Shown: positions 1 through 29,547 of the stretch, in pieces | Layout of the letters: each line of letters begins with the position of its first letter | How positions within the stretch are numbered: position 1 is the first letter of the stretch | Source: an uncultured Myxococcales bacterium | Lineage (GTDB): Bacteria > Myxococcota_A > Polyangia > Palsa-1104 > JAEUJZ01 | DNA length: 29,547 bases | Reading direction: 5' to 3' | NCBI GenBank assembly: GCA_937952145.1 | Contig: CALFYE010000446.1 | Span: forward strand, 1 to 29,547 | The notes under the pieces: generated by a model | The model's input: the letters and a program-made list of their open reading frames with translations, nothing else | The model's database searches: none | What the model was told of the DNA's origin: nothing | Made by a program: the position numbers and the translations under genes

Positions 1-52
1 GCCCCAGCCTTACGGGGCCCTCGACGGGAGAGATAATATGTAAACACCTTCT
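1..52. repeat. 3' (tail) portion of the ~167-bp TIR-bounded structured repeat; identical to 6849-6899 and ending in the TIR TGTAAACACCTTCT
   Basis: Direct match of window positions 1-52 to 6849-6899 (gccccagccttacggggccctcgacgggagagataatatgtaaacaccttct). The window begins inside the element. Confidence 0.8.
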
Positions 53-116
53 TAGTGCCGCCCGAAAGCAGCTCGCGGCGGAGCGTCGAGACGGGCAGAA
101 GGCACGCGCGCAGCTC

Positions 117-581
117 ATGCCGCAGGCCCGACAGGGCAAGCAGCCCCTTCTCACCAGTCAGAGCGAGCTACAGCGCCAGCTTGAGCAAATCCTGCTGCGG
201 GCAGAGACGGCGGAACAGACGGTCAGGACGTTGCAGAGTGCGGCCAAGGAGCAGGAGCGTCGCTATCTGGATCGCATCGAGCAGCTACAGCGCAAACAGC
301 TTCCGGCGGCTGACGAGGCGCGCAAGCGGCGGTCCAGCAAGAAGGACGACAAGCAGCCCGCGGCCAAGAAGGGGCGCAAACGGCTGCCAGCGAAGCCAGG
401 GATCGTCGAGAGGGTTGGGATGGTCGTGGCCGGGACGGCGGCGGGCCTCGCTGCCGGGCTGGGGCTTGGAAAGATGCTGGGAGATGGCGGCAGGAAGCGT
501 TTGCCGCCGAAAGAAGTGGGGCCTGCCTTCGACATAATTCCCGTCGTGGAACGGAAGCGGCTGCCGCCCAAAAGAGACTAG
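117..581 (+). CDS. Hypothetical coiled-coil protein with three C-terminal (G/E)RKRLP(A/P)K repeats and a Gly/Ala-rich hydrophobic segment (VGMVVAGTAAGLAAGLGLG)
   Basis: 154-aa ORF. The first half is heptad-like and Q/E/R/L-rich. It carries repeats GRKRLPAKPG, GRKRLPPKEVG and ERKRLPPKRD. It starts 65 nt after the repeat element. Confidence 0.45.
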   Translation: MPQARQGKQPLLTSQSELQRQLEQILLRAETAEQTVRTLQSAAKEQERRYLDRIEQLQRKQLPAADEARKRRSSKKDDKQPAAKKGRKRLPAKPGIVERVGMVVAGTAAGLAAGLGLGKMLGDGGRKRLPPKEVGPAFDIIPVVERKRLPPKRD

Positions 582-1066
582 GCCAGTCGCACAGGCTCGG
601 GCGCAGCGTTGAAGCTGCTCATCGCATCAAGGAGTGATGCGCACGAACGGAAGCGCACACCGGGAACACCGACGGTGTACTCGATGAACTCCCAGGCCAG
701 GTGCCCGCGCGCCTCGCGAAGCGCGATCTCGCGCACGCAGCGCATCAGCACGGGCCGACTGTCGCCGTAGGTGACCGGCGAACCGTCGGCCCTCGCGACC
801 GGACAGTCGATCGTCTTGATGTGGACAGGGATCAGGCGTTTGCGTCGCTGATGCAGACGATAGAAGACCCCGACCCAGAACAGCATCTCGTGCTCGGTCG
901 TCGTCGAGCCAGGGATGGTCGGCGACGGCTCGGCGATGAGTGCTGGCCTGAACCCATGGTGGCGCGGTCGCCTGGGCACGGGCTTTTGCCTGGGGTGGCG
1001 GGGATTTGCGGCTGACGAAGGACGCACTACTGGCACCGTGGCTCCGGTGCGCCCGGGTGCTGACAC
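578..1066 (-). CDS. Hypothetical protein. Only the C-terminal ~100 aa (from MLFWVGVFYRLHQ..., i.e. 578-888) looks protein-like; the N-terminal Pro/Arg-rich part may be spurious
   Basis: ORF is convergent with 117-581, overlapping by 4 nt. The C-terminal half has varied composition (GHLAWEFIEYTVGV). No family recognised. Confidence 0.3.
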   Translation of the reverse strand: MSAPGRTGATVPVVRPSSAANPRHPRQKPVPRRPRHHGFRPALIAEPSPTIPGSTTTEHEMLFWVGVFYRLHQRRKRLIPVHIKTIDCPVARADGSPVTYGDSRPVLMRCVREIALREARGHLAWEFIEYTVGVPGVRFRSCASLLDAMSSFNAAPEPVRLA

Positions 1067-1242
1067 ACTCCGACGCGCTACGGGGTCGGCGGACCCTCAC
1101 ATCCGCCGGTCCCGGTCTGTGTCTGCCCGCAGGATGCGGGCCGTGGGGGCAATCGAGGCAGGCCGCCAGGGTTTGCTGGGGCTGATCTGGCGAGCGTGAC
1201 AGCGCAGGCAGAGACTTGCTACCGCGACCTGATTAGCTTGTC

Positions 1243-1256
1243 AAACATATGTTTGT
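1243..1256. promoter_or_regulatory. Perfect 14-bp palindrome CAAACATATGTTTG, ~60 nt upstream of the XRE-HTH gene, within TTGTCAAACATATGTTTGTTTTCA. Candidate autoregulatory operator overlapping a TTGTCA -35-like hexamer
   Basis: Reverse complement of CAAACAT is ATGTTTG. Location relative to the 1317 start codon. Confidence 0.35.
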
Positions 1257-1316
1257 TTTCATTCTGATTTCCTGGCCAACTGGCCTCATGTTGCGGGGAC
1301 GTGATACCGGGCCAAG

Positions 1317-27228: not shown

Positions 27229-27333
27229 CTGCGATTGTCTAGGCCCATCGCGCGCACTGTCGTGCGCTCAGCCGCCCCTGACCTGCGCCCCCCCACAAAC
27301 AGCAAGATCGCCGCCGGGCCCTCGCTGCCCGGT

Positions 27334-27398
27334 CGCCGACTTCTGGCGCCGACTTCTGGCGCCGACTTCTGGCGCCGACTTCTGGCGCCTACTTCACC
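27334..27398. repeat. Tandem direct repeat of the 13-bp unit CGCCGACTTCTGG: 4 perfect copies plus 1 degenerate copy, in the convergent intergenic region. The last unit overlaps the stop of the isochorismatase-family gene
   Basis: cgccgacttctgg cgccgacttctgg cgccgacttctgg cgccgacttctgg cgcctacttcacc read directly. Confidence 0.9.
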
Positions 27399-27991
27399 AG
27401 TGCCGAGATGGCCTTGAACTCGGGCGTGCCGGCGCGGCCGAGGAGATCGAAGAGTACGGTCTCGGTGGCGGTGACGGTGGCGCCGACGCGCTCGGCGAGC
27501 ACCAGGCCGACGCGCAGGTTTTCTGGATCGCGCGAGCAGACGGCATCGTGCGGGACGAACACGCGATAGCCGACGTGCGAAAGATCGCGCACGGTCTGGT
27601 AGACGCAGATATGCGTCTCCATGCCAAAGACGATGATCTGCGTGCGGCCGCTGTCGACAATCGCCTTGGCGATGGCGGGATCGGCCCAGGCGGAAAAGTC
27701 GATCTTTTCGTGGCGGCCGGCGCTCGCTGGAATCGCTTCGGCGAGGCCCGGTACTGTCTCTCCTAGGCCCTTGCGATACTGCTCGGTGACCAGCACCGGC
27801 ACGCCCAGCACCGTCGCGCCGCGCAAGAGGATGCGGCCGTTGTGGACCAGGCGCTCAAGCAGCTCTTCATGCATCGCCGGCGCCAGCCGCTCCTGCACAT
27901 CGATGCACAGGAAAAGTGCCTGATCGCGCAGCAGCCGCAGCGGCGGGGGCGAGCTTGGGCTCATCGCTGGAACGGTCGTCGCCGTCGTCAT
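27389..27991 (-). CDS. Isochorismatase-family cysteine hydrolase
   Basis: LFLCIDVQERLAPAM...VLVTEQY...IIVFGMETHICVYQTVRDL (catalytic Cys in the ETHIC context). Start uncertain: 27991 has an AAGGA RBS; alternatives at 28024 and 27964. Confidence 0.7.
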   Translation of the reverse strand: MTTATTVPAMSPSSPPPLRLLRDQALFLCIDVQERLAPAMHEELLERLVHNGRILLRGATVLGVPVLVTEQYRKGLGETVPGLAEAIPASAGRHEKIDFSAWADPAIAKAIVDSGRTQIIVFGMETHICVYQTVRDLSHVGYRVFVPHDAVCSRDPENLRVGLVLAERVGATVTATETVLFDLLGRAGTPEFKAISALVK

Positions 27992-28075
27992 TGGGGTCGT
28001 CCTTTCGCCATTTATTGAGCGCACATCTTATACGGGCCGCTGTGATACTGTCGCGCGACTTTGCGAGGCCGATCA

Positions 28076-29442
28076 TGACGAACCCCGTGTCCAGCCAGTC
28101 CAGCGACGGAAAAACCCACCTCAAAGTCCTCACGAATCTGTCCAGCCAAGAGGTCCGCGCGATGTCGCGTGAGTACCTGATGCCGGCAGTGTTCAACTAC
28201 TTCAGCGAGTCGCTGGTGCTGCGCCGCGGCTCGGGCTTGCACGTCGAAGACGCCGAGGGCAACAGCTATCTCGACTGCTTCGGCGGCATCTTGACGGTCG
28301 GCTTGGGTCACTGTCTGCCCGAGATCTCCGACGCGATTGCCGAGCAGGCGCGCACGCTGGGGCATACCTCGACGCTGTACCAGAACGAGTGGATCGTGCG
28401 CTTGGCGCAGGCGGTGGCGCAGAAGATGCCGGCCGGCAGCAACCTCAAGCAGTCGTTCTTCAGCAGCAGCGGCACGGAAGCGGACGAGATGGCGGTGATG
28501 CTGGCCAAGAACGTCACCGGTCGGCAGGAGATCATCGCGCTGCGTCACAGCTATTCCGGCCGCGGCATGTACGCGGTGTCGGCGATGGGACACGCCAACT
28601 GGCGCCCGATTCCACCGCAGATGCCGGGCATCAGCCTGATGCCGGCGCCGTACTGTTATCGCTGTCCCTTTGGCCTGTCGCCCAAGAGCTGCGATGTCCG
28701 CTGCGCAGATGACATCAAGGAAGTCTTGGCCACCACCACCACAGGGGCGCCGGCGGCGTTTATTGCCGAGCCAGTGCTGGGGGTCGGCGGCTTTGTCGTC
28801 CCGCCGCGTGAGTACTTTCAGAAGGTCGTGCCCGAGGTCAAAAAGGCGGGTGGTCTGTTCATCTGCGACGAAGTGCAGACCGGCTGGGGCCGCACCGGCA
28901 CCTACTGGAACGGCATCGAGCACTTCGGCGTGAAGCCCGACATCATGACCTTTGCCAAGGCCACGGCCTCGGGCTTGCCGATGGGTGTGACGGTGTCGAC
29001 GCCTGAGATCGCTGGGGCCTTCAAGGGCCTGACGCTCGCCACCTATGGCGGCAATCCCATCTCGTCGATTGCGGCGCTGACCACGATTCACATCATGGAG
29101 CGCGAAAACATCCCGGCGCGCAGCGAGCGGCTGGGCAAGCGACTGCGGGCTGGTCTGGATGCGCTCAAGGACAAGCACCCGCTGATCGGCGATGTTCGCG
29201 GCCTGGGCCTGATGCAGGGCGTGGAGCTCGTCGAGGATCGCGGCAGCAAGCAGCCGGCGAGCAAGCGCGCCAACCTGCTGCTCGATGTCATGAAGCGCCG
29301 CCGCGTGTTGATCGGCAAGGGCGGGCTTTACGGCAACACGCTGCGCATTGCTCCGCCGATGCTGGTGGAAGAGTCGCAGATCGATGAGCTCCTGCACCAC
29401 CTCGATGGGGCGCTTGGGGAAGTGGCGCAGGCTGCGATCTGA
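28076..29442 (+). CDS. Class-III PLP-dependent aminotransferase (omega-aminotransferase family)
   Basis: FICDEVQTGWGRTG, PLP-lysine region DIMTFAKATASGLPMG, and overall class-III architecture. Confidence 0.85.
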
Positions 29443-29446
29443 GGTG

Positions 29447-29547
29447 AGGGGGTGTTTACAAATTGGGCTGTGAATGCCCTTGACGCGAACGGGCTGCACG
29501 GCTGGGGCCCCCGCGGACGCGGCCTCCTTTTTTCGCCGGGGCGTCGA
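29447..29547. repeat. 5' (head) portion of the structured TIR repeat (GGTGTTTACAAATT...GCCGGGGCGTCGA). The window ends inside the element
   Basis: Conserved core matches 6777-6833 exactly. The 5' variable segment is ~70% identical to 6733-6776. Confidence 0.8.

Follow-up and report, generated by a model that had tools for sequence, protein, structure and literature searches.

A 169-bp repeat in an uncultured Myxococcales genome is very probably a miniature transposon with the ends of ISPsy19-like IS5-family insertion sequences

The 29,547-nt contig CALFYE010000446.1 of an uncultured Myxococcales bacterium (assembly GCA_937952145.1), which was analyzed whole and is called the window here, carries three copies of a dispersed repeat that we name MITE-A. 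The repeat is very probably a MITE (for miniature inverted-repeat transposable element): a 169-bp non-coding, non-autonomous transposon that has the ends of an ISPsy19-like insertion sequence (IS) of the IS5 family and is moved by a transposase supplied in trans. A first-pass annotation made from the letters alone had listed a MITE among its candidates, and that reading is well supported by the ends of the repeat, the TNA duplications that flank it, its diverged and dispersed copies, an empty site in a relative, and IS5-family elements that share its ends. MITE-A is an ordinary type of element, a further member of the MITEs, and its ends are those of the ISPsy19-like IS5 clade.

The full copy of MITE-A lies at 6730-6898 on the plus strand and has no coding capacity of its own. 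Its left terminal inverted repeat, GAAGGTGTTTACAAATTA (6730-6747, plus), matches the reverse complement of the right one, GAAGGTGTTTACATATTA on the minus strand (6881-6898), at 17 of 18 positions, giving an inverted repeat of 17/18 nt with the form GAAGGTGTTTACA[A/T]ATTA, for which a repeat search reports 22 nt at 95%. The element had earlier been placed at 6733-6899, with a length of 167 bp and perfect 10-bp inverted repeats; the element and its repeats are real, but the borders, the length, and the extent of the repeats are those given here. The head copy (29448-29547, plus) is cut by the window end and has the outer three bases GGG instead of GAA, while the tail copy (1-52, plus) is cut by the window start. 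Across these copies, the 10-mer GGTGTTTACA occurs four times (39-48 minus, 6733-6742 plus, 6886-6895 minus, and 29451-29460 plus), against an expected count of 0.00 in 100 shuffles, a similarity far beyond chance that bears out the three copies first proposed. Positions 6774-6828 and 29493-29547 are identical over 55 nt (100%), positions 1-55 match 6848-6902 at 98% identity, and over 97 nt the head copy shares 89.7% identity with the full one. A variable 5' segment is also real, although at 82% identity over the first 38 nt it is less diverged than the ~70% claimed for it.

Target-site duplications, which were sought around the copies, proved to be 3 bp long with the form TNA. The full copy is bordered by TTA at 6727-6729 and TAA at 6899-6901, with one mismatch between the two; TGA (29445-29447) stands immediately before the head copy and TTA (53-55) immediately after the tail copy, so all three window copies have TNA flanks. 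That MITE-A has moved is seen at the orthologous locus of a relative, a 112-kb contig (L214) that contains three window blocks in colinear order (92-95% identity), with 94.5% identity over 2,951 nt in the block that runs from a BBP2 porin gene to the gene for a sigma-54 enhancer-binding response regulator (enhancer-binding protein, EBP; 6898-8259, minus strand). The EBP end reads GAGGC-TTA-GAGCGCCT in L214; on the same strand, the window reads GAGGC-TTA, then the 169 bp of MITE-A, then TAA-GAGCGCCT, and the sequence after TAA continues GAGCGCCTAAC. L214 lacks exactly MITE-A and one 3-bp copy of the target, which is the signature of transposition. The orthologous sites in two more distant relatives, L208 and L213 (EBP 82% and 79% identical), are empty as well.

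A second element, MITE-B (123 bp, 6604-6726), is unrelated to MITE-A and adjoins it. It has 17-nt ends, GAGCGCCTATCAAAACC and GGTTTTGTTAGGCGCTC, and lies between TTA duplications at 6601-6603 and 6727-6729, the latter doubling as the left duplication of MITE-A. In L209-L212, a relative with 73% identity to MITE-B occupies precisely the TAA stop of the EBP orthologue. In L214, the eight bases after the EBP-end TTA are the first 8 nt of MITE-B, so MITE-B was present at this site before MITE-A arrived, and MITE-A inserted alone. This order bears on the lower-GC block at 55-6600, which has a GC content of 0.53 at 3000-5000 against ~0.65 elsewhere, has no counterpart in L214, encodes a serine recombinase (2300-3556) and several open reading frames (ORFs), in part coiled-coil-like, that Pfam does not match, and was probably acquired as an island. 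Two copies of MITE-A in the same orientation (1-52 and 6730-6898) bracket the block, as they would if they were attachment sites or composite-transposon arms for these 6.7 kb, but we consider this very unlikely: the start of MITE-B adjoins EBP in L214 even though MITE-B would lie inside the composite, the copy at 6730-6898 inserted alone, a third copy is found at a distance of 22 kb, and no such block accompanies the family copies of other genomes.

The window is the whole contig, and the sequence that each of its ends has in common with the internal copy breaks off after ~51-55 nt. The suggestion that the contig ends in copies of a repeat that breaks assemblies is plausible, and we infer that a de Bruijn-graph assembly broke at MITE-A on either side, so that the finding accounts for the contig break at both ends. 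The same pattern could in principle arise from a circular or overlapping window in which head and tail are a single copy, and the head (100 nt), 19 missing nt, and the tail (52 nt) do add up to one copy of normal length. We regard such an artefact as highly improbable, because the three window blocks are colinear with the 112-kb contig of the relative, the gene content is chromosomal (a kdp operon, an RlmL-type methyltransferase, and an aminotransferase), and there is no terminal overlap of the kind usual in circular contigs; in either case, the full copy inside the window and those in other genomes are real. An exact-protein look-up of window ORFs for extending the contig ends returned no match for four of them and only short Logan contigs for two others.

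Further copies show that the element is not unique to this locus. Four complete copies of the MITE-A family, 73-85% identical, lie on four contigs of the metagenome-assembled genome (MAG) DAORCZ01, in both orientations and with differing flanks, and the terminal sequences are invariant in all five complete family copies. The organism label "Pseudomonadota bacterium" stands both on this MAG and on a partial protein in the 90% cluster of the window EBP, which suggests, without proving it, that DAORCZ01 is a close relative. On one of the family loci (L031), a solitary left end, GAAGGTGTTTACAAA (2046-2060), lies 68 nt upstream of a complete copy and may be a truncated second insertion. A candidate at another locus (L129) had the look of a close family end; it was set aside, since it leads into an IS256-like transposase. 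When MITE-A and MITE-B were used as blastn queries against plasmids, neither gave a significant match, and a synthetic end-to-end query gave one chance match only.

An autonomous element with the same ends had been listed as something to look for, and such elements exist in metagenomes. A metagenome scan with AGAAGGTGTTTACAWATT returned 110 loci, mostly chance or conserved coding matches, among which ~12 are true elements. Full-length elements with the 17-nt ends of MITE-A occur in L091, L104, and L178 (1,264 bp) and in L108 (1,202 bp), and the left end of the window element is identical to their ends over 17 nt. They are flanked by TAA/TAA in L091, L104, and L178 and by TGA/TCA in L108, and further partial IS copies are present in L100, L118, L128, and L158. 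Full-length elements range from 1.18 to 1.26 kb and have a sole ORF of 372-396 aa, composed of an N-terminal helix-turn-helix (HTH) region followed by DUF4096 and DDE_Tnp_1, which matches the NCBIfam model NF033580 "IS5 family transposase" with E values of 5e-60 to 5e-62. In a tblastn search against plasmids, the transposase matched proteins annotated as "IS5-like element ISPsy19 family transposase" with 46% identity across 94% of its length. Related elements on plasmids resemble these in their ends: an ISPsy19 copy in NC_007274 has the ends GAGGGTGTAGACAAAAT, an IS on a Halomonas plasmid has the ends GAGGGTGTTTACATA, whose core GAGGGTGTTTAC MITE-A shares, and an IS on a Cupriavidus plasmid has the ends GAGGGTGTGGACAAAAT, the latter two with TTA/TTA flanks. 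Pairs of ends at an IS-like distance in L035, L016, and L006 were also considered as partner candidates and were rejected, as they enclose ordinary genes and no transposase.

ISPsy19 was described from Pseudomonas syringae pv. phaseolicola 1448A as an element of 1,178 nt with perfect 17-nt inverted repeats and a 3-nt duplication (PMC3189936). Of the 17 positions of its end, GAGGGTGTAGACAAAAT, 13 agree with the end of MITE-A, GAAGGTGTTTACAAATT, and four differ; ISPsy19 shares with MITE-A the 3-nt target duplication, and its transposase has the same HTH, DUF4096, and DDE_Tnp_1 layout as the transposase of the elements that share the MITE-A ends. The two differ in that ISPsy19 is autonomous and encodes a 367-aa transposase in its 1,178 nt, whereas MITE-A is non-coding and 169 bp long, and in the target, published as CHHD for ISPsy19 (PMC3189936) and seen here as C-TNA-G. 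The same paper reports no MITE derived from ISPsy19 and attributes its MITEPsy1, with 4-nt duplications, to ISPsy2. The IS1031 subgroup of IS5 targets TNA and makes an exclusive 3-bp direct repeat, as MITE-A does, and its ends likewise begin with GA(A/G), as in ISLrh (GAACCTGTCTAGTATCT) (PMC12016507). ISLrh measures 857 bp (PMC12016507), whereas the partner elements here are 1.18-1.26 kb long and have an extra N-terminal HTH region.

From these likenesses, we propose that the DDE transposase of an ISPsy19-like IS would bind and cleave at the 17-nt ends, GAAGGTGTTTACA(A/T)ATT, and would be supplied in trans by an element of 1.18-1.26 kb with one ORF (HTH, DUF4096, and DDE_Tnp_1). Insertion would proceed by cut-and-paste at TNA, preferably within C-TNA-G, and would duplicate three bases. 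A transposase of this kind presumably also moves the MITE-A family in the source genome. Several findings weigh against this account: no transposase of the clade is present in the window, in L214, in L208-L213, or at the DAORCZ01 loci; the copies are few, with seven seen in total (three in the window and four in DAORCZ01); the duplication around the full copy is imperfect; and, past the outermost ~20-24 nt, MITE-A does not resemble the autonomous elements, which means that MITE-A is not a simple deletion derivative of them.

Among known small elements, Correia and RUP duplicate TA, compared with TNA in MITE-A. The eukaryotic Tourist MITEs of the PIF/Harbinger group make 3-bp TNA (TTA/TAA) duplications at a palindromic extended target, as seen here, and differ from MITE-A in their eukaryotic hosts, in their unrelated ends, and in requiring a second, Myb-like protein. 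The DDE transposases of PIF/Harbinger are related to IS5 (for context, see PMC4482050). Bacterial MITEs such as MITEPsy1, Correia, RUP, ERIC, and SPRITE resemble MITE-A in being small, non-coding, strongly folded, and mostly intergenic, with inverted repeats and target duplications, and in being moved in trans by an IS transposase (PMC10969869). MITEPsy1 stands apart in its 4-nt duplication, CTAG or YTAA (PMC3189936), as against TNA here, and in its end sequence.

An intergenic, palindromic, GC-rich repeat between convergent genes also calls to mind the repetitive extragenic palindromes and bacterial interspersed mosaic elements (REP/BIME) that are moved by a REP-associated tyrosine transposase (RAYT), an IS200/IS605-like enzyme, and a REP-like element was among the first suggestions for this repeat. 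To our knowledge, REPs lack long terminal inverted repeats and target duplications, and they are ~20-40 nt long, against 169 bp for MITE-A. The idea founders on the 17-nt terminal inverted repeats and the 3-bp TNA duplications of MITE-A and is contradicted by the empty site; moreover, the elements that share the MITE-A ends encode DDE transposases, and no RAYT-like gene was found among the large window ORFs scanned against Pfam. We give this origin almost no credence.

The genes that touch the copies explain several peculiarities of the neighborhood. The stop codon of EBP, a TAG read from 6900 to 6898 on the minus strand, consists of two duplication bases (6899-6900) and the terminal base of the element (6898); the first-pass annotation was right that the end of the repeat is in contact with this stop, but the two overlap by one base and do not merely abut. 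It had also noted that the inverted repeat provides the stop of an ORF at 5706-6890 (plus), and a TAA does lie inside the right repeat, but only because this ORF reads through two MITEs. The ORF, coiled-coil-like in its mid part, enters from outside, passes through MITE-B and then MITE-A, and has MITE sequence in its last ~96 codons; it is the sole ORF across MITE-A, which itself has no transposase gene. Without the two MITEs, the ORF would instead continue for 38 codons into the EBP gene in antisense. The two MITEs account both for a long ORF that seems to cross intergenic DNA and for an EBP stop that falls on a repeat boundary. At the right-hand side of the window, a class-III aminotransferase gene (28075-29442, plus, probable start at 28075) ends with a stop codon at 29440-29442, two nt before the TGA, and the head copy begins 5 nt after the stop. 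The tail copy lies upstream of a gene and not after one.

The core of MITE-A is a GC-rich imperfect palindrome (6781-6856) in which a T6 and an A6 run pair around a small CGCCGGGGCGTCG stem-loop. The predicted fold of this core into a long hairpin was borne out on both strands of the full copy, with RNA energies of -94.2 and -94.3 kcal/mol and z-scores of -7.8 and -8.0, and a DNA z-score of -6.6. All five complete copies retain the palindrome, and 95.7% of their pair cells are standard. Compensatory changes are limited to four pairs across the five sequences, and the covariation score is close to that of slid controls; support for selection maintaining the hairpin is thus weak, which again counts against our account. 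The hairpin may possibly affect transcripts that read into it, for example by protecting them from 3' exonucleases, by analogy with other bacterial repeats.

Two readings give the hairpin a function of its own. The first, which the first-pass annotation raised in describing the core as terminator-like on both strands, takes the repeat to be a mobile bidirectional intrinsic terminator, or a stabilizer of mRNA 3' ends, that is kept for ending or protecting convergent transcripts. In its favor are the placement of copies immediately behind stop codons and between genes that converge, the great stability of the hairpin on either strand, the conservation of the T6-CGYCGGGGCGYCG-A6 core block across both subfamilies, and the precedent of terminator-like MITEs such as SPRITE (PMC10969869). 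We nevertheless think it unlikely. The order of parts is T6, small GC stem-loop, A6, so that the T-run comes before the stem-loop and its pairing partner, the A-run, after it; bidirectional terminators have the opposite order (A-tract, hairpin, U-tract), and the small hairpin has no U-run behind it on either strand. A consensus scan of 6400-7100 found 0 terminator-like sites (0.5 in shuffles) and no promoter-like site, the covariation support is weak, and the tail copy is not positioned at the end of a gene; such activity would, in any case, be a side effect of a MITE and not an alternative identity. The second reading, a family of structured small-RNA genes, can point to the strength of the fold (z of about -8) and to the 95.7% of predicted pair cells kept in five copies. 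It is highly improbable, given that both strands fold equally, as expected of a DNA palindrome, that no promoter-like site was seen, that covariation is not above the slid controls, and that Rfam 15 has 0 matches at the gathering score in the whole window, with only sub-threshold matches to miRNA-hairpin models (E values of 0.14-0.67).

MITE-A, as a MITE, belongs to a wider group whose members have the same ends. When one genome per species was scanned for GGTGTTTACA-N128-158-TGTAAACACC, 56 loci were returned, for which we estimate a chance expectation of ~17 (31 spacings x 596 Gb / 4^20). Features that were absent from the search pattern set 34 of the 56 apart, namely three further bases, GA(G/A), on the outer side of the 10-mer at each end and, beyond them, a 3-bp flank. 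Within this superfamily, the 3-bp flanks are identical in 21 of the 34 elements, 59 of 68 flanks are TNA, a C precedes the flank in 21 elements, and a G follows it in 20. On clustering, the window element groups with the four DAORCZ01 elements, and the other members form separate families that have unrelated interiors and the same ends. The hosts include Halomonadaceae and Pseudomonas (11 copies), several Chlamydiota MAGs, Myxococcota MAGs, and others, so that the superfamily spans three phyla-level groups, Gammaproteobacteria, Chlamydiota, and Myxococcota. By blastn, a Halomonadaceae MITE matched a Halomonas megaplasmid at six places, with no annotation under the best match. Undescribed MITE families in three phyla are in this way linked to one named IS clade (ISPsy19-like, IS5 family), and the ends together with the TNA rule provide a practical signature for annotators who mask such repeats in MAGs. 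A literature search on the 10-mer GGTGTTTACA returned only papers on forkhead sites and primers.

Other sequences share parts of these ends. A separate 165-bp repeat family in the Clostridia MAG CAMFFO01 (L002, L040, L048, and L056) shares only the core GGTGTTTACAG and has AATT, not GA(G/A), outside it, which means that the 10-mer alone does not define one superfamily. Viral contigs scanned with AGAGGGTGTTTACAAA yielded 26 matches, none with a partner end (up to three mismatches) within 4 kb and all with flanks unlike TNA duplications, and these were treated as chance. In the Myxococcota MAG JACKFA01 (L012, 4567-6895), superfamily MITEs stand in tandem, and one of them is interrupted by ~2 kb, with TCAGAAGGTGTTTCAGTATTCGGACCG recurring on both sides; the inserted stretch encodes what may, judged by eye, be a reverse transcriptase (ORF at 5669-7012), as for a group II intron.

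Contact with a stop codon, as at EBP, recurs with striking frequency across the superfamily. An insertion was scored as coinciding with a stop codon if the stop of an ORF of at least 100 codons was the duplicated TNA itself or was made up of the final two TNA bases and the first G of the element. This holds for 20 of the 34 superfamily elements, compared with 10% of TNA sites and 18% of CTNAG sites outside ORF bodies in the same loci (binomial P of 1e-12 and 1e-7, respectively), figures that also speak less strongly for our account than they appear to, since they use mechanical ORFs, some spurious in GC-rich DNA and only some confirmed as genes, and count insertions within one genome as independent events. 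Raising the ORF minimum to 150 codons leaves 17 of 34 elements, compared with 3-9% of control sites. Pfam identifies many of the flanking ORFs as real genes with domains that reach the last residues, including MgsA, class-3 FBPase, and dihydropteroate synthase (FolP), and further RNase PH, PBP1A, and a VWA protein, as well as EBP in the window. Among the few full-length IS copies examined, a small sample, there is no coincidence with stop codons. The passages on insertion-site preferences in a review of MITEs (PMC10969869) do not mention insertion on stop codons.

A stop codon could survive such an insertion in two ways: TAA and TGA, as TNA targets, are themselves stops and would be duplicated, and the first G of the element would turn a preceding "TA" into TAG. 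Given the palindromic C-TNA-G target and the initial G of the element, the stop would be preserved, and the gene would keep an intact stop after insertion, which fits the copies found directly after genes and between convergent genes. The bias may reflect target choice by the transposase or the survival of harmless insertions, and both readings stand. If it is target choice, it would offer transposons a simple route for spreading in compact genomes without gene disruption and would be a recurrent source of new 3' untranslated structure. A bolder version holds that a cross-phylum superfamily of MITEs with GA(G/A)GGTGTTTACA ends has a transposase aimed at C-TNA-G stops and preserves the host stop, so that its members act as portable 3'-end modules. 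We offer this as a speculative possibility, with much more doubt than confidence; if true, a very stable hairpin right after a coding sequence could influence mRNA stability or convergent read-through and could explain why the elements persist from Chlamydiota to Myxococcota.

Two other features of the window lie apart from the MITEs. The stretch at ~9847-16123, which holds kdpABC and kdpD, has no counterpart in L214, where the BBP2 porin and histidine-kinase genes are only ~280 nt apart, a presence/absence difference of 6.3 kb. In the spacer upstream of the aminotransferase gene, a tandem repeat at 27334-27395 consists of 4.8 copies of the 13-bp unit CGCCGACTTCTGG with a 97% match.

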